Source: an uncultured Acidobacteriia bacterium (GTDB lineage: Bacteria > Acidobacteriota > Terriglobia > Bryobacterales > Bryobacteraceae). Taken from it: DNA of 64,000 nucleotides. Under the pieces are notes generated by a model. That model was not told the DNA's origin. It did not search any database and worked only from the letters and a program-made list of their open reading frames with translations. The stretch is from positions 3,849 to 67,848 of the forward strand of contig CAIXXM010000072.1 in the NCBI GenBank assembly GCA_903923395.1, written 5' to 3'. The position numbers and the translations under genes were made by a program. The first letter of the stretch is position 1. Every line of letters starts with the position of its first letter. Below, piece after piece: positions 21,519-58,200 of the stretch.

Positions 21519-22727
21519 TTACCGAACCGTGCCCGCGAGTTGCTTCCCCGTGGTCTTCCCATCCAAGTCCGGCAACAGCGCGGTCAGAATCCCGATGGCC
21601 GGCAGGAACGAACAAATCTGGTAAACGTACGCGATCCCGGAGTGATCCGCCAGCTTCCCCAACAGCGCTGCCCCGATTCCCCCCATCCCGAAGGCCAGTC
21701 CAAAGAAGACGCCGGAGATCATCCCTACCTGCCCTGGCACCAACTCCTGCGCATAAACGACAATTGCGGAGAACGCCGAAGCGATCACGAGTCCGATCAA
21801 CACACTCAGTACCCTGGTCCAGAAGAGATTGGCATGTGGCAGGGCCAGAGTGAAGGGCAGCACGCCCAGGATAGAGATCCACAGGACGCGCTTGCGCCCG
21901 ATGCGATCACCAATGGGTCCTCCGAACAGTGTTCCGGCAGCGGTTGAGCCAAGGAACAGGAAAAGCAGCAATTGGGCATCCTGGACGGACAGGTGGAACT
22001 TATCGATGAGAAAGAAAGTGTAATAGCTGGAAATCCCGGCCAGGTAGAAGTACTTCGAAAAGACAAGCAGCCCCAGGACCGTCAGCCCCAGCAGCACCTT
22101 TGCGCGCGACAAGCCACTCGCCGGGTGCGCCTTTCTGGCCTGCTTTTCCGCTAGATGTGCCTGGTACCACCCGCCGACTCTCCACAACAAATACATCGCA
22201 AGCAGCGCGGCCAAAGAGAACCAAGCAAGACTTCCCTGCCCTCCCGGCACGACAATAAACGCAGCAAGCAATGGCCCCATCGCCGACCCCGCCGTGCCGC
22301 CCAGCTGATAGATCGACTGCGCCATACCGAATTGCCCGCCGGAGGACAACCGGGCCACCCGCGAAGATTCCGGGTGAAATATGCTCGACCCCATGCCGAC
22401 GAATGCCGCCGCCAGGAGCAGTAATGCGTAAGTTGGTGCCACCGAAAGCATCAGCAATCCGGTCAAGGTAATCCCCATGCCGGCAACCAGCGAATACGGC
22501 ATCGGCTTGCGGTCGGTATAAAGGCCGACAAAGGGTTGCAGGATGGAGGCCGTCAGCTGGTAGGTCAGTGTGATCAGTCCCAGTTGGGCGAAATCCAGAT
22601 GGAACGAAGTCTTGAGAATGGGGTAGACCGCTGAGATCAGGCTTTGGACCAGATCATTCAGCAGATGGCAAATGCTCACGAACAGCAGAATTCGAAACGC
22701 TGTATCCCGCTCACTTCGCGGCAGCAC
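21519..22727 (-). CDS. MFS transporter (Fsr / fosmidomycin-resistance-like subfamily)
   Basis: Polytopic. N-terminal ...AFRILLFVSICHLLNDLVQSLISAVYPILK... resembles the Fsr family. The track start (ATG 22796) lies inside the continued rhodanese frame. An in-frame GTG at 22727 (17-nt overlap) is more plausible. The start remains uncertain. Confidence 0.85.
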   Translation of the reverse strand: MLPRSERDTAFRILLFVSICHLLNDLVQSLISAVYPILKTSFHLDFAQLGLITLTYQLTASILQPFVGLYTDRKPMPYSLVAGMGITLTGLLMLSVAPTYALLLLAAAFVGMGSSIFHPESSRVARLSSGGQFGMAQSIYQLGGTAGSAMGPLLAAFIVVPGGQGSLAWFSLAALLAMYLLWRVGGWYQAHLAEKQARKAHPASGLSRAKVLLGLTVLGLLVFSKYFYLAGISSYYTFFLIDKFHLSVQDAQLLLFLFLGSTAAGTLFGGPIGDRIGRKRVLWISILGVLPFTLALPHANLFWTRVLSVLIGLVIASAFSAIVVYAQELVPGQVGMISGVFFGLAFGMGGIGAALLGKLADHSGIAYVYQICSFLPAIGILTALLPDLDGKTTGKQLAGTVR

Positions 22728-23655
22728 TGGACTTGACAACAACAGGAAACCCTTTCTCGATCCAACCCTCAAACCCGCCTTCGAGCGGGCGGACACGCGT
22801 AATTCCCATCCTCTTCAACGAGAGCGCCGCACGGGCGCTCGAAGCTTCGTTTGGTCACGAACAGTAGAGAATAATGTCCTGATCGAAGGGCAACTGCAGG
22901 CGTTGCGACTCCAGTTCAGCGGGCCGGTAGTGCAGGGCTCCGGGCAAAATCTCATTTCCTTCTTCCAGTTCGTGACGCAGATCAATGATGACGAGTGGCT
23001 CGCCACGGTCCATCATGGCTTTGACTTCTTCGGCAGCGATGCGGGAAATGCGCAGTTTGCGGAGGAAGGACCAGCGCTGCCAATATTTCCAGATCAGCCA
23101 GGACAGCAGCGGCACGCACACCGCAACACCGAGCCACTTCCCGGTGCCCATGACCCGGTCCGCCAGTCTTTCCAATTCCCCGCCGAACAGCCAGCCCGTC
23201 ATAAGGTAGGACGCGGCCCAGATCAAACTTCCAGCAATATCAAAGAAGAGGAAGCGCCCAAAGTGCATGCGGATCACACCGGCGAGCGGCGGCGCCACGG
23301 TGCTCAGGCCCGGGATGTACTTGGCGTAGAGCAGTGTGGCGGCACCGCGCTTGGCGAAGACCTCTTCCGTCTTGCGGACGCAGGAATCCGGTTCGAGCGA
23401 CACCTTGCAAAGGAGCTTCAAGACCTTCGCGCCTTTGATGCGTCCCAGCCAATACCAGGGAATGTCGCCTGCAAGGCAGCCAGCCGCGCCAACTGCAATG
23501 GCCATGCCGATCGAGAGCCGGCCTGTCGCCGCCAATGCTCCTGCCGCGAGAAGTACCGGCACACAGGGAATCGGCAACCCCAACTGCTCTGCCAGGACCG
23601 CGCCGAACACGAAGGCGTACCTGTGGGCCAGCAGTAAGGCTAACAGTTGCCGCAT
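22711..23655 (-). CDS. DedA (VTT/SNARE-associated) membrane domain fused to a C-terminal rhodanese domain; in-frame UGA (22857-22855) at the catalytic Cys position, candidate selenocysteine
   Basis: MRQLLALLLAHRYAFVFGAVLAEQLGLPIP... is a DedA N-terminus. The rhodanese part reads ...PLVIIDLR...DQDIILYCS-TGA-PNEASSARAALSLKRMGITRVRPLEGGFEGWIEKGFPVV.... The same frame stays open to TGA 22713-22711, and the total length of 1005 nt is divisible by 3. If the TGA is a genuine stop, the CDS is 22855-23655. Confidence 0.6.
22813..22844 (-). other. SECIS-like stem-loop 10 nt downstream of the in-frame UGA
   Basis: Minus strand: UGA-CCAAACGAAG-CUUC-GAGCGCC-CGUGC-GGCGCUC-UCGUU-GAAG. The stem has 7 + 4 bp. 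The apical loop contains G and U and begins 24 nt after the U of the UGA. Confidence 0.5.
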
Positions 23656-44549: not shown

Positions 44550-44566
44550 CCACTTAGCCTATTTTT

Positions 44567-45547
44567 ATGACCGGAGTTCACATCCGGGGCGGTGGTATCG
44601 CTGCCCTGTGCGCGCAGCACCTGCTCACGCAGGCCGGCATCCCTACGCTGCTGGAGTCGAAGGACAGACCGCGCCTGCCCGCCATCCTTCTAAGTGACGC
44701 AGCGCTTCACCTGCTTCGCGACGTCTTTGGCAAACCCGCACTCTTCCAGGACCTTGCGCCACTTACTACCCGCGTGGTGGCCTGGCACCGGAATGAACCG
44801 CCGGTCGAACTCCCGCACCGGGCGATTGTGGTTTCAGAAGAGCAACTCCTTAGTGCATTGGCATCGGATTCCGTGCCTCCGCTGGACCCGCCAGACTGGA
44901 ACATTTACGCAGCGCGCCCGCAGAACGTTACCGAACTGCAGTTCGGTACGCGCCGCGCCGCAGCTGCATTGGTCCAACTCACTGCGGACGCCCCATTGCA
45001 GGCGTTTTGGATTGAAGCTCTTCCGCAGGGATGGCTCTTCCTTATCCCCAGAGCTGACCGCACTGGCTGGATGCTTTCGGTTGGCGTACCCGAACTGAGG
45101 GACAGTAAACTCATCGCGCCGCTGGTGCAGAGCAAACTGGAGGATGCCGGCACCTTCCCCGCCTATCCCCGCTTGCTGGAAAGTCTGCACGGCGAACGCT
45201 GGCTGGCATGCGGTACGGCTGCAATGGCATTTGATCCTATCTGCGGTGACGGCACGGCCAATGCGGTCCGGGAGGCGATATTGGCCGCGGCAGTCCTGCG
45301 CGCCATCCACCGGGGACTACCGGCGGGTCCACTGCTCGAACACTACACCAGCCGCCTGCTCTCCGGCTTCGCCAGGCACTTAGTCTTCACGCGCGACTTC
45401 TACTTATCCGGAGAGCGCGGTAACTGGTGGGTGAACGAACTCGATGGACTGCAAAGCGGGCTGGCCTGGTGCCGTGCGCAACTCGGCGCGGTTCCCGAAT
45501 ATAACTTCCGCCTTGATGGCTTTGATCTTTATCCGATCAACCAATGA
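44567..45547 (+). CDS. qhpG: FAD-dependent monooxygenase, QhpG-like (CTQ biogenesis)
   Basis: 326 aa. N-terminal dinucleotide fold IRGGGIAALCAQHLL. Translationally coupled to qhpF/qhpE-like genes and adjacent to qhpADCB. The assignment rests mostly on context. Confidence 0.65.
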   Translation: MTGVHIRGGGIAALCAQHLLTQAGIPTLLESKDRPRLPAILLSDAALHLLRDVFGKPALFQDLAPLTTRVVAWHRNEPPVELPHRAIVVSEEQLLSALASDSVPPLDPPDWNIYAARPQNVTELQFGTRRAAAALVQLTADAPLQAFWIEALPQGWLFLIPRADRTGWMLSVGVPELRDSKLIAPLVQSKLEDAGTFPAYPRLLESLHGERWLACGTAAMAFDPICGDGTANAVREAILAAAVLRAIHRGLPAGPLLEHYTSRLLSGFARHLVFTRDFYLSGERGNWWVNELDGLQSGLAWCRAQLGAVPEYNFRLDGFDLYPINQ

Positions 45548-51690: not shown

Positions 51691-52023
51691 CTACGGATAT
51701 ACCAGGTCCAGCTTGCGCCAGTCTTTGGTAGCCACGGCGCACTTGCTCGCCCAATCCGGATAGTTATTCAAGTGGTCTGGAACCTGCGCGGGCCAGAAGC
51801 ACGTGACATAGCAGTCATAGATATCGCGCTCCACGGGCTGACACAGACCGGCCGTGCCGCCGCCCGAATCCACTTCCCAACCCGGCGAAAATGACAGCGC
51901 GCATCCCATAGGGACATGCGGGCGGGCACCCGGGTTCTGCAAGGCAACCACATCTTCATCGAGCGAGGCCACGAACTGGTCGATTCGCTTCGCTTTCCGG
52001 TTCAACGGACGCATGTGTTTCAT
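51691..52023 (-). CDS. qhpC: quinohemoprotein amine dehydrogenase gamma subunit precursor (CTQ/thioether-crosslinked peptide)
   Basis: 110 aa. The core C-x8-E, C-x5-D, C-x3-C-x-W-x5-D has exactly the spacing of Cys7-Glu16, Cys27-Asp33, Cys37/Trp43 and Cys41-Asp49 in Paracoccus QhpC. ATGA overlap with qhpD. Confidence 0.9.
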   Translation of the reverse strand: MKHMRPLNRKAKRIDQFVASLDEDVVALQNPGARPHVPMGCALSFSPGWEVDSGGGTAGLCQPVERDIYDCYVTCFWPAQVPDHLNNYPDWASKCAVATKDWRKLDLVYP

Positions 52024-53462
52024 AAAGCTTTCCTCTCAGCAAACTGTTCCAAAAAGGCAGGATTCTTCGCACTTACCGTGCCATATATCTTCAAGCAGGT
52101 CTCCGTCCACTCGCGGATCCAATCGCAGTAGTGGAGGTTCGGGTGCCCGGTGTCGCCGTAGCGAACATAGGCTTCGTGGTGACATCCTCCCGCACAGAGC
52201 GGGCGGGCGAAGCAGGTATGGCAATCATACTTCGTGTTGATATGCCCCCGGCCGAGGAAGTCCTGTTGCTTTTCCTTGTCCATGCCGGTCGAGATATGAC
52301 CCAGCACATGCGTATCGGAATCCACAAACCGGTGGCAGGGTGCGATATCACCGGACGGCCCCACGCCAACCAGGCCCAGGCCGGCACCGCAGGGATGTGA
52401 CTTATTCACCCCTTGATACAGCTCAGCCATCGTATCGCTGACGTTCGAGAATCCATGCATCTCACCGCGAAGCGCATATTCCAGCCACTCGTCCGCCAGG
52501 ATATGGAACTGCTTCAGCACTCCGTGCATGCCCGGCTCATTAATCGCATACAAACGGTCCGGCGAAGTAGTTACTGGTGCAAAGCCAATCTCATGGAAGC
52601 CCAGCTCATCCTTCAAGTGGCGATAGATCCGGACCACATCGGTTACACCATTGGTCAGCGTCACACGGCATGTGATCGGCCGCGTCTTATGATTCGCAAT
52701 CAACGCCCTTACACGCGGTGCGATGATGTCATAGCTGCCCTTGCCGTTCGCAAACACCCGTAACTTGTCATGCAACTCCGGCGGACCGTCCATACTGACC
52801 GTCACACCAATTTTGTTCTCCGAGAGGAACTCCACAATTTGCGGAGTCAGCAGCGTTGCATTAGTTGTCAGGCTGAAGTCGATACTGCGGCCCTGTGCTG
52901 CCGCAGTCTCATTGGCATAAGTCACCACCTGCTTCAGCAACGGGAAGTTCATGAGCGTTTCGCCGCCGAAGAACGTGACATGGACTGTCTCGCGCTCACC
53001 CGATGAGGCCAACAAATAATCGATACTCTGCTTGGCCGTCTCATAATCCATGAACTTCGGCTTGCCCTCAGGTGTCGCCACCTTGTCTTCGCCGAACTCA
53101 TAGCAATACTGACAGGACAGATTGCACTGGTTAGTCAGATTGAGGACCAGCGTCATCAAAGGGAAATCGGCAGGCGGTTCCGCAACCGGCTCCGGCTTCG
53201 TATCCGCCGAGATGATGGCGCGGGACATATGCAGTTCATGCACAATCTCCTCGGCATCACCAATCGAGTAGCCCTTTTCCGTTAATGCCGCCACCAGCTG
53301 GTCATGAGGCATTCCCTGCTTGACCAGATCCAGCACAAGACGGGAAGTCTCATCCAACTGGAAGATCGCCCCTGCCGGGACTAAGTAGAGAAACGTTTCC
53401 CCTGCTGCGTCGAATTCCTTGAATTCACCGGGCGTGTAGACCCGGGCTTCCGTAGCCGTCAC
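52020..53462 (-). CDS. qhpD: radical SAM/SPASM peptide maturase QhpD
   Basis: 480 aa. CNLSCQYC radical-SAM cluster motif. C-terminal SPASM cysteines ...CGAG...APCHRF...CHTCFARPLCAGGCH... Confidence 0.9.
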   Translation of the reverse strand: MTATEARVYTPGEFKEFDAAGETFLYLVPAGAIFQLDETSRLVLDLVKQGMPHDQLVAALTEKGYSIGDAEEIVHELHMSRAIISADTKPEPVAEPPADFPLMTLVLNLTNQCNLSCQYCYEFGEDKVATPEGKPKFMDYETAKQSIDYLLASSGERETVHVTFFGGETLMNFPLLKQVVTYANETAAAQGRSIDFSLTTNATLLTPQIVEFLSENKIGVTVSMDGPPELHDKLRVFANGKGSYDIIAPRVRALIANHKTRPITCRVTLTNGVTDVVRIYRHLKDELGFHEIGFAPVTTSPDRLYAINEPGMHGVLKQFHILADEWLEYALRGEMHGFSNVSDTMAELYQGVNKSHPCGAGLGLVGVGPSGDIAPCHRFVDSDTHVLGHISTGMDKEKQQDFLGRGHINTKYDCHTCFARPLCAGGCHHEAYVRYGDTGHPNLHYCDWIREWTETCLKIYGTVSAKNPAFLEQFAERKAL

Positions 53463-55279
53463 TTTTCCACCTCAGGCTGATCCCACTTGATATAAGTCGG
53501 CACAGTTACCACCAGGTAGCTCTTCGCTGTCAGGGGCTTGCCGTCTTTGTCCTTCAAATCTTTCGCCTTGGCCACAATCCACACATCCCCGTAATTGTTC
53601 CGGCTGAACTTGCGCTCGGGGTTGGGGCCGTCAGATGCCGGTGTAAACAGGGCAGTGGGGCTGAGATAGCCCACAAAGTCTTTGTCGTCATCCCCGTACA
53701 CCGAAAGGAACTCTTCCACGGACCAAGTTACTTCCACCGGACCAAGTTCAATATCGTCAGCCGTGTGCGCCTTGCCATCCGCTCCGCGGTGATAGGCCAT
53801 GACCTCAAACTGCTGATAGCCCTTGGGATGCACCTCACTGCCCAGACGGGCTAAAGAAGTTTCGGGTAATACGCGGATGTAATCGATCTTGTCGTAAACC
53901 GCCAGTGCTCCAGGCAGAATCGCCCGGCCTGCCATTACATCGCGCTTCCCGCTGGCGGCCTTGGCGTCCACATCGATTTCCACGACCATTTCGCCCGCGG
54001 AATGCGAGACAATCTGCTTGACCTTCACGCCTGCGCCGAAATCCAAGTCTGCTGCTTTGATATCTGCAGGAACATGATCCCCGTAGATCTTGACCTTCGC
54101 CGTTGTACCGGCCTTCACAGACATACGGTCCAACATGGTCAGGTGAGTTTCCGCACTAACCCGCGTCAGAGTAACATCCAGGCCGAACTCCTGGTATTCG
54201 CCCCAGAACCAGCGGCCTTCCGCGCTCGATTGATCCGGATTGAACCACATGGCCTCGCGCATCATGTGCGCCGAGTCATCGGGCTTCATGTCGGCCGGCG
54301 GTTTTGTGGCATTTTCATTTCTGCCGCGCCAGGAGTAACCGGCATAGACCAGACCCGTACCGGTGCGGCTCAGTACAGAGCCGTCCGTGACTGAGGTCAG
54401 GGTTGCTTTTGTCTTGAACTCATCGGCGGCAGCGCCCTGCGTGATTTCCAGTGTTCCGGAGTAATCCCCTTTGCCCGGCAAGTGTGCCTTCACCAGCCAT
54501 GTTCCCGCCAGCTTCGGCGCTTTCATGCGGGTGCTCCAGGTTCCCCACTCCGGCGTATGCAGGGCAGCTGCATTACCCAGGAATTCCAATGCCACTTCCA
54601 ACGGTTCCTGCGTTGGAGCCGCAGCAGCGCCCGCGGCAGCCGTAGCCGCGCCGCGGCCCGCTCCACCACCGGCTCCACCGCCGCCACCCATACCGGACCG
54701 CCGGAAATGCGTTTCAGCCTGCGCATACAGGGCCACGTGCAAGTTAGCCAGCAAACGCCAATCATTCTTCGACCGGCGCCAGCTCATTGGCCTGCCCATC
54801 GCGTGGCAGGTAGTGCAAGCACCGCGCACGGAATCATTCGGGATATTCGTTTCGTCAATCAGCCTGTGTTCGGGAATGTACATCACCGGCTTGGCCTCTT
54901 CCGGTGCCAGCCCGTGATAAGTCGCCAGATACTTCACAACTGACCGCGCCTCGTCTGGAGTGATCGTCAAGCCATTTAGCCGCACCATGCGCTTCAGCGC
55001 CTCAGACCAGCCTTCTGGTGTTGCACGTTCCCAGGAAATGCGGGACAGATTCCCTTTGTCATCCTTCGCATGGCAGGTGCCGCACTTCTTGATGACCAGC
55101 GCATCGGTAACCGGAATACCTTCCTCCGTCTCCACATTCGCCGGTGCAGCGCCGGACGCAGCACGCCCCGCGCCTCTCTGGGCATATGCCGCCGGCAGTG
55201 TACACATCACCGCCGCAGCGAAAACAATGGCTCCGAATCTCTTCAACGAATTCCCCTCCATCCAGTTCCGCATGTCCAT
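53459..55279 (-). CDS. qhpA: quinohemoprotein amine dehydrogenase alpha subunit (dihaem cytochrome c)
   Basis: 606 aa with a signal peptide. Two CxxCH motifs (CGTCH, CTTCH) in the N-terminal domain, then beta-rich domains. Confidence 0.88.
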   Translation of the reverse strand: MDMRNWMEGNSLKRFGAIVFAAAVMCTLPAAYAQRGAGRAASGAAPANVETEEGIPVTDALVIKKCGTCHAKDDKGNLSRISWERATPEGWSEALKRMVRLNGLTITPDEARSVVKYLATYHGLAPEEAKPVMYIPEHRLIDETNIPNDSVRGACTTCHAMGRPMSWRRSKNDWRLLANLHVALYAQAETHFRRSGMGGGGGAGGGAGRGAATAAAGAAAAPTQEPLEVALEFLGNAAALHTPEWGTWSTRMKAPKLAGTWLVKAHLPGKGDYSGTLEITQGAAADEFKTKATLTSVTDGSVLSRTGTGLVYAGYSWRGRNENATKPPADMKPDDSAHMMREAMWFNPDQSSAEGRWFWGEYQEFGLDVTLTRVSAETHLTMLDRMSVKAGTTAKVKIYGDHVPADIKAADLDFGAGVKVKQIVSHSAGEMVVEIDVDAKAASGKRDVMAGRAILPGALAVYDKIDYIRVLPETSLARLGSEVHPKGYQQFEVMAYHRGADGKAHTADDIELGPVEVTWSVEEFLSVYGDDDKDFVGYLSPTALFTPASDGPNPERKFSRNNYGDVWIVAKAKDLKDKDGKPLTAKSYLVVTVPTYIKWDQPEVEK

Positions 55280-58200
55280 TAAAAAGTCAGTCTACCGCTC
55301 AATTGCAACGCCCGGGGGCCTGAGCCTTCCGCGCTCTGCATTGTTGTGATGGTACCGAATGAGCTCGTTCCAAGAGTCAGCGACGGAGTGCCGTAGTTCG
55401 GGTGGTTGAAGGCATTGGATGCCGCCACGCCAACCCGCAATTTCACCCGCTCCTTATAAGCCAGCGTACGGAACAGAGAAAGTGACACTGCTTTGGTTCC
55501 CGGACCCTGCACCGCACCCACCGGCGAATTGCCGAACCGGCCAATGTTGTTCGCCGGGATCGCAAATGCCGCAGCATTCACCCAGTTCGTGGTGCTCTGG
55601 TTCGCCGGCACGACATTCGCGCCGGACACGATATCCGCACGGCCGTTGCCGATCAAGTTCACGAAGTTCGTACCGGAAGGATCAGCGCCGCTCGCGACCA
55701 CAGTGAGAAACGGACCGCTCTGAAACAGAGCCACGCCAGCCAGTTCCCAACCGCCCGCCAGCTGATTCACGATCTTGCTCCCCGTATGCGAGAACGGCGA
55801 TTCATACAGGAAGGTGGTCTGGAAGCGGTTGCGCCGCGTAAAGGCCACGTTGCCGTAATCCAGAGCCGGATGGAACCGGTCCGTAATCGTGCCGCCGCCC
55901 GAGCCTGCAAACGCACTCGGCGCGTACCCGCCGATGTCTGACAGGTTCTTTGCAAAGTTGTAGCTCGCCTGGAACTGCAATCCCTTCGACATGCGTTTGT
56001 TGATAGACGCCGTGAACGCCTGATAGTTACTCATGCCGCCATTCGTTTCCTCGATGATTTGCTGGAAAAGCGGGAAGGGCGCGGATTTTGTAGCAACACT
56101 AAAACCAGCTGTATTTGCAGGGACTTCATTCGGGTTATCAGTCAACCCTAAGTCCGAACCATGACTCCCGTCATACGAAAGTCTTACGCCAGTTTGAAAA
56201 CCAAGATCGCGTTCCAAGGTCAAGTTCCACTGCTGCACATATGGATCTTTGTAGTGCAGTGCGTTCGACAAATCGAAGACCTGCGACCCCGGTTGCGCCA
56301 GATTCGAGGGGAAGGGATACGGGAAGGTCAACTGCGGTTTGCCGCCAACAATGCTGTTCGTAAAGCCAGCAACATCGCTGGCTTCCACCGCCCAGGAGGA
56401 CAGCAACAGATTGCCGAGTTGCGCTTCGATAAAGCGCCCATAACCACCGCGGATTACGGTCTTCCCGTCGGCCGTCGCCCGCCATGCGAAGCCGATGCGT
56501 GGCGCGAAGTCAGCCTTCGCCGAGTAGCGCAAGCTCTGGGGAATTCCCGCCTGACTTGCCGTAAGGATCGGTGTTGGCGCAATCGACTGCGCGAAGGCCG
56601 GATTGATCAGCGAATAGCCCTTGTCCGGCACCACCACCGCTCCATGCACCGTAACACCATTCACCACGTTGTAGACGTCCGGCAGTAAGTTCGCCGTGTT
56701 GGAGTTATGATCCTGGAACATCGGATGATATTCCCACCGCATACCGTAATTGATCGTCAGGCGGTTCGTCACCTTGAAATCATCCTGTACGTAGAATGCG
56801 TAGCTGGCCCCGTAACCATTGGTGTCCGGGTTCAAGACAGTGGAAAGAGTGTCCGAATCCGGTATGCCCAACAGGAATGCTCCGTAAGCATTGCCAATCA
56901 GGGAACTGGTGACAGAATTATTGAACGTATAGGAGCCCAGCCGCTGACTTGCGAACACGTTCGTATAGAGCGCCTTGAGATACCGGTAATCACCACCGAA
57001 CTTGATGGTATGCTTGCCCTTGGTCATCGTCAGGTTGTCCAGGACCTGCCAGGTGCTGGTCTGCGAGATCGATGAGGCACCGCCGCCCGTGCTTTGGAAC
57101 CCTGAGATCTTGAAGTTGGGAACTGCATTTCCGGCAGGAGGTGCCTGCGGCAAGTAAGACGTCAAGCCAAGCAGGTTCGCCATATCAGTAGCAAGAACCC
57201 CATAACTTGTCGAAGCATTTGAACTCGTCATGCCCGCCCGGATTTCATTCACAAAGTGTGACCCGATTACCCAGTTATGAGCAATCGTCACCCCTTTGTC
57301 TTTCTCAGGCTTGGTGAATCCGCCGAGCAGAGCAGAGCCCGTAGGCGTCGTCTGCGCCAGCTTGGATTTGTATGTGAACCGGACGAAGACGTTCTGGTTC
57401 GATGTGATCTTCTGGTCACCGCGAACGTCCCCCTGGTTGCTCGAAATCGGGGTGGGGAAGTTCGTTACGAAATTGTTGGCAATGGCGGTGGGGCTTCCGT
57501 TATTGGGCGTGGGATAGAGATACTTCAGTGCACCCAGAGACAACGGAGCTATCCGGCTCACGGGAATCTGATTTCCCACAAATGGGGAGCCGTTTGTCGG
57601 GTCGAGCACCGCTTTTGAATATGCGGATAAATCGCCGCTCCGAAGAGCCAGCGACGGTACGCTCTCGGTCAAGACCTGCTGACTCGGCAAGCGAAGCCCC
57701 TCGTAGGTGCCAAAGAAGAAGGTCTTGTCTTTCCCGTTGTAGATCTTGGGCAGCATCAACGGACCACCCACATAGCCGCCAAAGTCATTCATATCCAGTT
57801 TGGGAACGGTCGCGCTGAATGTGTTGCGCGCATTGAACGCCGTGTTCTGATTATTCTCAAACAAGCCGCCGTGTAATTTATTCGTTCCGCTCTTTGAGAT
57901 CGTAGTAATATCGCTGATCCCGCCGAACTCGGCGCTGTTGTTGATTTCGCTGACCCGGATCTCTGCGATGGCATCGAAAGAAGGAAATAACTCCGAGATA
58001 GGCGCGCTGTTTCTGGGACTCATCGAGCTGATGCCGTCGATGGTCACCGATAACATACTCGGCTTCGACCCCGCTACGGATAAGTTCCCGCTGTTGTCCA
58101 CCACAACACCAGGCTGCGTCGTGAGCGTTGAAAAAGCACTGGTGGAACCGCCCGCTCTGGACCCAATCGCCACAGGAAGATCCGTCAACTCCCTGCCGAG

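Follow-up and report, generated by a model that had tools for sequence, protein, structure and literature searches.

Gene organization at the locus

We analyzed a 64,000-nt stretch (hereinafter, the window) of contig CAIXXM010000072.1 from an uncultured bacterium of the Bryobacteraceae (Acidobacteriota), focusing on a short minus-strand hairpin immediately downstream of an in-frame UGA codon, which a first-pass annotation of the DNA had proposed to resemble a bacterial selenocysteine insertion sequence (SECIS). The UGA lies within a gene encoding a fusion of an N-terminal DedA/VTT membrane domain and a C-terminal rhodanese domain, whose product is predicted to contain selenocysteine (Sec). The features of this gene are as follows.

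22711–23655, minus strand: DedA/VTT–rhodanese gene of the predicted selenoprotein, complete; 314 codons, ATG at 23655, predicted Sec at codon 267.
23191–23568, minus strand: DedA/VTT membrane domain, residues 30–155 (Pfam PF09335 VTT_dom, E = 4.5e-15).
22756–23034, minus strand: rhodanese domain, residues 208–300, across the UGA (Pfam PF00581, E = 2.3e-13).
22855–22857, minus strand: in-frame UGA, putatively read as selenocysteine (U267); motif L-Y-C-S-U-P-N-E, aligned with Cys267 of homologues.
22713–22711, minus strand: true stop TGA of the gene, according to the read-through translation.

The VTT domain scores 56.6 bits, above the gathering score of 33.9. In the list of open reading frames (ORFs), a 286-codon ORF closes at the UGA, and gene callers stop the protein (P0001) at 266 amino acids; reading past the UGA adds 47 further codons up to the true stop, completes the rhodanese domain, and yields a continuous 314-residue protein. 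The residues around the UGA are I-I-L-Y-C-S-U-P-N-E-A-S-S-A-R-A-A-L, and the CxU motif of the rhodanese domain is formed by C265-S-U267. One mRNA would carry two UGAs, the putatively recoded one and the terminating one (22711–22713, minus strand), and no hairpin follows the latter.

The hairpin downstream of the UGA

The minus strand from 22857 to 22813 reads UGA-CCAAACGAAGCUUC-GAGCGCC-CGUGC-GGCGCUC-UCGUU-GAAG, and both these bases and all coordinates had been given correctly in the first-pass annotation. The segment is divided as follows.

22841–22854, minus strand: 14-nt spacer CCAAACGAAGCUUC between the UGA and the stem base; codons P-N-E-A and part of S; equal length in 57 out of 57 TGA orthologues.
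22834–22840, minus strand: 5′ arm of the putative SECIS stem, GAGCGCC (folding, alignment, RNAalifold).
22829–22833, minus strand: apical loop of the putative SECIS, CGUGC; loop position 2 is an invariant G, position 3 is U or G.
22822–22828, minus strand: 3′ arm of the putative SECIS stem, GGCGCUC (folding, alignment, RNAalifold).
22813–22821, minus strand: UCGUU bulge and GAAG of a proposed lower stem; plain coding sequence, with no conserved structural role.

The stem, as originally described, consists of seven perfect, G+C-rich base pairs (22840–22834 with 22828–22822) and carries the loop CGUGC. The UGA and the loop are separated by 21 nt; counting from the U of the UGA gives 24 nt, which is indeed within the claimed range of 16–37 nt. 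Folded alone, the 23-nt hairpin has a minimum free energy (MFE) of −13.8 kcal/mol (z = −3.38), which no dinucleotide shuffle out of 200 equals; given the G+C-rich sequence, the single-sequence energy is convincing for this hairpin core only. The 17-nt core AGCGCCCGKGYGGCGCT has one occurrence in the 64 kb, compared with 0.11 expected with at most two mismatches.

Orthologues and the codon at the UGA site

A protein search retrieved the window product and four relatives at 58–88% identity, all five ending at 265–266 residues, together with thousands of full-length homologues (306–341 residues, approximately 50% identical, both domains present). In the DNA of the truncated relatives (L001–L005), TGA occupies the same codon, and the frame beyond it is open and conserved (PNEASSARAAL..KGITRVRPL.GGFEGW). 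Both cysteines of the Y-C-x-C-P-N-E motif are invariant in the full-length proteins, and the UGA of the window gene aligns with the second one (Cys267; 28 homologues).

For the comparison at the DNA level, 85 orthologues were used, namely, the window gene, four close relatives, and 80 species-level genomes, each represented by its best-matching locus, as found by scanning GTDB with a single genome for every species. The codon at the UGA site is TGA in 57 of the 85 orthologues and TGC or TGT in 28 (52 and 28, respectively, among the 80 species-level loci). The 57 distinct TGA-form sequences were aligned without gaps (alignment A2), and the 28 cysteine (Cys) forms constitute alignment A3. The metagenome-assembled genomes (MAGs) with the TGA form are labelled as Acidobacteriota/Terriglobia, Bryobacterales, Rokubacteria, Methylomirabilota, Nitrospirota, Dormibacterota, Verrucomicrobiia, and Baltobacteraceae. 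The TGA form is also carried by the complete chromosomes OY969910.1 (L019) and OY969905.1 (L074), and the Nitrospira genome AP038806.1 (L075) has the Cys form. In a neighbor-joining tree built without support values, the Cys forms fall into at least six separate clades nested among the Sec forms, and thus the contrast between the Sec and Cys hairpins, considered below, is not one phylogenetic split; the loss of the hairpin likely went along with several independent Sec-to-Cys switches.

The frame after the TGA is open for 40–68 codons in every one of the 55 TGA forms whose data are complete (in the remaining two out of 57, it runs off the locus end), the respective range for the Cys forms being 44–63 codons. 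Mean majority-base conservation at the first, second, and third codon positions, calculated over codons 13–39 after the UGA, is 0.78, 0.83, and 0.51 for the Sec forms, and 0.82, 0.82, and 0.55 for the Cys forms; by these profiles, the frame downstream of the UGA evolves like coding sequence. Given the read-through gene and the alignment of its UGA with an invariant Cys, the first-pass proposal that the element lies inside a coding sequence holds. At the same time, TGA is the ordinary terminal stop in 26 out of 55 TGA-form genes, the window gene included, and hence UGA is not reassigned genome-wide, but seems to be recoded at one site.

Conservation of the hairpin in the Sec and Cys forms

The decisive evidence for the hairpin is comparative: across the 57 UGA orthologues (alignment A2), 97.2% of cells in the 7-bp stem are paired, and all 57 keep the hairpin at the same spacing, with six or seven out of seven pairs and the loop N-G-K-N-Y. 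In the same columns of the Cys forms (alignment A3), 66.8% of cells are paired, a value reached by 488 out of 500 shuffles. The mean number of pairs is 6.8 out of seven in the TGA forms (44 sequences with seven, 11 with six) versus 4.7 in the TGC/TGT forms (no sequence out of 28 with seven), and the mean hairpin MFE is −12.1 versus −5.9 kcal/mol (Mann–Whitney test, p = 1.5e-14 for the pairs and 1.9e-11 for the energy). Thus, as the first-pass annotation had expected, the full hairpin is missing from the 28 Cys homologues.

Within the TGA forms, the three inner pairs are constant, pair 4 shows the C-G to U-G change, and the outer pair covaries (CG in 32 sequences, GC in 13, AU and UA in one each, with a mismatch in nine). 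The loop is CGUGU in 31 Sec forms, CGUGC in 12, CGGGU in 12, CGGGC in two, and AGUCU in one, and the G at loop position 2 (alignment column 32) is invariant (57 out of 57). The RNAalifold consensus of the TGA forms consists of exactly the 7-bp stem, and nothing more.

This bears on the 4-bp lower stem, which had been proposed below the upper one. The CUUC/GAAG complementarity (22844–22841 with 22816–22813) is present in the window, but the MFE fold of the window sequence does not use it, forming AACGA/UCGUU instead. Across the Sec-form orthologues, CUUC/GAAG and AACGA/UCGUU are paired in only 41 and 48% of cells, respectively, and we rejected both as parts of the element; the RNAalifold consensus contains neither of them. 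The functional element is likely a minimal 6–7-bp hairpin, with neither lower stem conserved.

The synonymous sites of the stem are under selection in the Sec forms. Conservation of the third codon positions at +20, +23, +29, and +32 is, respectively, 0.93, 1.0, 1.0, and 1.0 in the Sec forms, and 0.79, 0.46, 0.50, and 0.61 in the Cys forms; over the hairpin codons, it amounts to 0.90 versus 0.55, and the flanking third positions of the same Sec sequences are conserved at 0.38–0.75. The encoded peptide follows the same pattern: the hexapeptide at codons +6 to +11 after the UGA (22822–22839 of the window) is SAR[VA]AL in 55 out of 57 Sec forms, and at least ten different hexapeptides, AARLAL, SAQLAI, and SARTAL among them, occupy this place in the Cys forms. 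It thus appears that the RNA structure constrains the encoded protein, that is, the SECIS freezes the peptide in the Sec forms.

Comparison with known SECIS elements and rhodanese selenoproteins

The bacterial SECIS consensus implies a 3–9-nt loop, a 4–16-bp stem, a UGA–loop spacing of 16–37 nt, MFE not exceeding −7.5 kcal/mol, and a loop with G at position 1 or 2, the next base usually being G or U (PMC13188914, Figure 2A). The window element conforms to each of these, with its 5-nt loop starting with C-G-U, 7-bp stem, spacing of 21 nt, and −13.8 kcal/mol. Like the elements described by the Zhang and Gladyshev model (used by bSECISearch; the prototype is Escherichia coli fdhF), it is located in the coding sequence right after an in-frame UGA, and, as is typical of bacterial SECIS elements, the structure is conserved in the Sec-encoding orthologues and dispensable in the Cys-encoding ones. 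Unlike the E. coli SECIS elements, with which it shares no sequence similarity, the window hairpin has neither a bulged U nor a conserved lower stem. The spacer to the stem base is approximately 11 nt in the minimal E. coli fdhF stem-loop, and 14–15 nt in the window element.

The top NCBIfam match of the protein is NF041203 rhodanese_LYCAU, "rhodanese-related (seleno)protein" (73.2 bits, model positions 19–124 out of 126); as the equivalog cut-off of 115 bits is not reached, the window protein is a relative of the curated equivalog rather than a member. The two share the rhodanese fold and the CxU motif after a hydrophobic strand ending with L-Y (LYCSU in the window, LYCAU in the family name). 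They differ in that the model spans about 126 residues, whereas in the window protein, 314 residues long, the rhodanese domain takes up the C-terminal part and the N-terminal 200 residues are assigned to DedA/VTT. Selenoproteome reviews distinguish five forms of rhodanese selenoproteins; one of these, "form 3, NF041203, CxU," was originally predicted by SECIS-based search. The same reviews contain no mention of DedA, VTT, SNARE, or PF09335. Likewise, a search of the accessible literature found no paper combining DedA, rhodanese, and selenocysteine; the DedA fusion appears not to have been singled out. The Cys proteins annotated in NCBI/JGI as "DedA family protein/thiosulfate sulfurtransferase GlpE" fusions have the same two domains, 46–53% full-length identity, and the invariant Y-C-x-C-P-N-E motif, differing by TGC or TGT in place of TGA and by a degraded or absent hairpin.

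Evaluation of the SECIS prediction

Taking all this into account, we conclude that the hairpin at 22840–22822 (minus strand) is very probably the bacterial SECIS for the in-frame UGA of the DedA/VTT–rhodanese gene. By its kind, the element would be a known one, the SECIS of a CxU rhodanese selenoprotein, and the mechanism is a textbook one.

Several observations weigh against this conclusion. The tRNA-Sec, selA, selB, and selD genes were not found in the 64-kb window (tRNA scan; Pfam search of 20 ORFs at 21.5–58.6 kb), although this negative result covers the 64-kb window only, in which the scan yielded zero tRNAs, and says nothing about the rest of the genome. At gathering thresholds, the window yielded no Rfam match, and the covariance-model scan that had been suggested as a check produced no SECIS match in 22700–22900 at E-values up to 10. 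The comparison with shuffled controls, on which the first-pass annotation had also placed weight, is favorable for the 23-nt core and not for longer segments, as longer flanks dilute the folding signal (z rises to −1.74 with 45 nt and to −0.61 with 61 nt); for this reason, the single-sequence energy is not taken as the main argument. The tree underlying the count of Sec-to-Cys switches has no support values. Finally, those Cys orthologues that encode SARxAL still form five to six out of seven pairs.

The latter observation is the core of an alternative explanation, according to which the hairpin is a by-product of the SSARAAL codons in a G+C-rich genome and has no function at the RNA level; the first-pass annotation had named such dictation by the ASSARAAL codons as the outcome that would refute a SECIS. 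Indeed, the Cys forms, too, have two invariant central pairs (G28-C38 and C29-G37 in alignment numbering), and for two of the SARxAL Cys forms, the folding energy lies between −9 and −10.5 kcal/mol. Some of the pairing potential is thus supplied by the peptide and the G+C-rich codon usage, which provide a degenerate scaffold of five to six pairs. The codons thus explain the hairpin partly, but not fully: none of the 28 Cys forms has the full hairpin or the C-G-closed 5-nt CGKGY loop, the third positions of the stem are 93–100% fixed in the TGA forms only, the outer pair covaries, and the Sec/Cys contrast persists when the peptide is matched. Among the SARxAL-encoding sequences, 7-bp stems are found in 45 out of 55 Sec forms and in none of the eight Cys forms, the mean MFE being −12.2 (range from −9.8 to −15.3, n = 55) versus −6.7 kcal/mol. 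The perfect stem with a C-G-closed 5-nt loop occurs only where the codon is UGA, and the comparison of the Sec and Cys forms largely refutes the explanation by codons, which we consider highly improbable.

Two other explanations concern the UGA itself, and we regard both as extremely improbable. If the TGA were a genuine stop, in a truncated or decaying gene or due to an assembly error, the hairpin could be a terminator or serve for translational coupling with the downstream MFS gene, which would agree with the gene callers ending the protein at 266 amino acids and with a stable hairpin following a stop codon. However, 57 independent genomes share this TGA, with 40–68 downstream codons open in every case and evolving in the coding manner; half of the rhodanese fold would be lost upon truncation, along with the catalytic loop; and the hairpin is not followed by a U-run, while the true stop is located 47 codons further. 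Alternatively, the UGA might be recoded to an amino acid other than Sec, either by hairpin-stimulated near-cognate read-through with Trp or Cys, given that downstream structures can stimulate stop-codon read-through and that the Sec machinery is not seen in the 64-kb window, or by a lineage-wide reassignment of UGA. The latter disagrees with TGA being the normal terminator of 26 out of 55 of these genes. Against both variants, the UGA is matched in the alignment by an invariant Cys of the active-site loop, which makes a classic Sec/Cys pair; the loop G-U/G and the spacing fit the SECIS consensus; the closest curated family is a selenoprotein family; and Acidobacteria have been reported to encode selenoproteins (PMC1794560, Table 2).

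Predicted position of selenocysteine in the rhodanese domain

In the AlphaFold (AF2) model of the Cys homologue P0010 (mean predicted local distance difference test score, 82.8), the strand in the region of residues 265–287 ends at Y and is followed by the six-residue loop C-T-C-P-N-E and then by a helix. The BLASTP alignment with E. coli GlpE (with Cys65 where expected) places C265 on the catalytic Cys65, and U two residues later, whereas in the ungapped phmmer alignment with PDB 6MXV, it is U267, that is, the second Cys, that falls on the catalytic Cys. The assignment of the catalytic position is thus split, the AF2 model and the GlpE alignment favoring C265, and the alignment with PDB 6MXV favoring U267. 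On either alignment, Sec is predicted to be located inside the active-site loop, two residues from the conserved Cys, an arrangement that would allow for a selenylsulfide.

Genomic context and other candidate sites

On its 3′ side, the DedA/VTT–rhodanese gene is followed by an MFS transporter gene and, beyond it, by the rpsL/rpsG/fusA ribosomal cluster; the 5′ neighbors encode asparagine synthase, a PMT_2 glycosyltransferase, and polysaccharide-synthesis proteins. No selenium-related gene was found among the flanking genes.

A different N-terminal architecture was seen at locus L061:27–1330 (Candidatus Baltobacteraceae MAG, DATJQT010000170.1), in the gene directly upstream of the DedA–rhodanese gene, which encodes an N-terminus resembling trypsin-type proteases (as judged by eye), a hydrophobic segment, and a rhodanese domain. 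The called ORF of this gene ends with VIAYCT-TGA, followed by PDEDSSARVAL, and the hairpin core C-AGCGCC-CGGGU-GGCGCU-C is located at the same 14-nt spacing. The identical arrangement of core and spacer suggests that the rhodanese-plus-SECIS module is reused in other proteins.

A lax window-wide screen for in-frame TGA codons followed by SECIS-like hairpins yielded eight candidates. None of those other than 22857 had comparative support, only the strongest of them (2701, minus strand) having been examined further. A SECIS at the TGA 2701–2699 (minus strand) was rejected, as this TGA is the normal stop of rpsK (ribosomal protein S11) and the hairpin is intergenic. This 11-bp hairpin, UUGCGGAGGGC-GGAA-GCUCUCCGCGA (within 2605–2701 of the window, minus strand; −19.5 kcal/mol), starts 27 nt after the rpsK TGA in the 95-nt spacer preceding rpsD (ribosomal protein S4), and may be an operon-internal regulatory or processing structure.

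Two further sites of the window are worth recording. Positions 52023–55291 (minus strand) contain a gene for the quinohemoprotein amine dehydrogenase alpha subunit (four Qn_am_d domains) adjoining that of a radical SAM protein, which looks like an ordinary qhp-type cluster. A 329-codon ORF at 44558–45544 (plus strand) matched no Pfam model at E-values up to 1e-5 and may be spurious in G+C-rich DNA; the genes on either side of it encode a NirB-like nitrite/sulfite reductase and an ABC exporter.

Proposed mechanism and implications

The likely mode of action is that of other bacterial SECIS elements. Situated 14 nt downstream of the UGA, the hairpin would find itself at the mRNA entrance of the ribosome once the UGA is in the A site, and would recruit the complex of SelB, GTP, and Sec-tRNA(Sec) to the ribosome stalled at the UGA. 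The C-terminal domain of SelB carrying Sec-tRNA(Sec) would bind the apical loop of the hairpin with its G-U/G dinucleotide, the SelB contact expected from work on SelB–SECIS recognition in E. coli and Moorella. SelB would then outcompete release factor 2, leading to insertion of selenocysteine, after which translation would run through 47 more codons and complete the rhodanese domain. For the window organism, we infer SelB binding, actual selenium incorporation, and the presence of selA, selB, selC, and selD in the genome.

The hairpin, minimal as it is (19 nt), could be convenient for the study of SelB recognition outside Proteobacteria and Firmicutes, and the family may be useful as a training and test set for bacterial SECIS models, given that Rfam has no counterpart for elements of such type. 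Moreover, one orthologous group with at least six Sec/Cys switches, in which the hairpin and the synonymous constraint are found only with the UGA, amounts to a clean natural experiment.

The fusion family appears to be widespread in soil and groundwater phyla, namely, Acidobacteriota, Rokubacteria, Methylomirabilota, Nitrospirota, Eremiobacterota, and Dormibacterota. It is possible, if somewhat doubtful, that the DedA/VTT–rhodanese fusion with the C-x-U loop represents a distinct selenoprotein family not described as such, with Cys having taken the place of an ancestral Sec, which is also the majority state (52 out of the 80 best-matching species genomes), on at least six occasions, and that transport across the membrane could be linked by the fusion with the transfer of chalcogens (S/Se). 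The suggested link to sulfur and selenium transport and transfer draws on a DedA protein of Ralstonia metallidurans for which a role in selenite uptake has been reported (cited in PMC11422209).

The public gene calls for the window protein and its relatives (P0001–P0004, P0009) all end at 265–266 residues and are labelled as DedA/VTT only, or have no source name. As the calls end at the UGA, the predicted selenoprotein is invisible in protein databases; this annotation error drops the active-site loop together with half of the rhodanese domain, and would thereby hide a selenoprotein of many uncultured soil bacteria.

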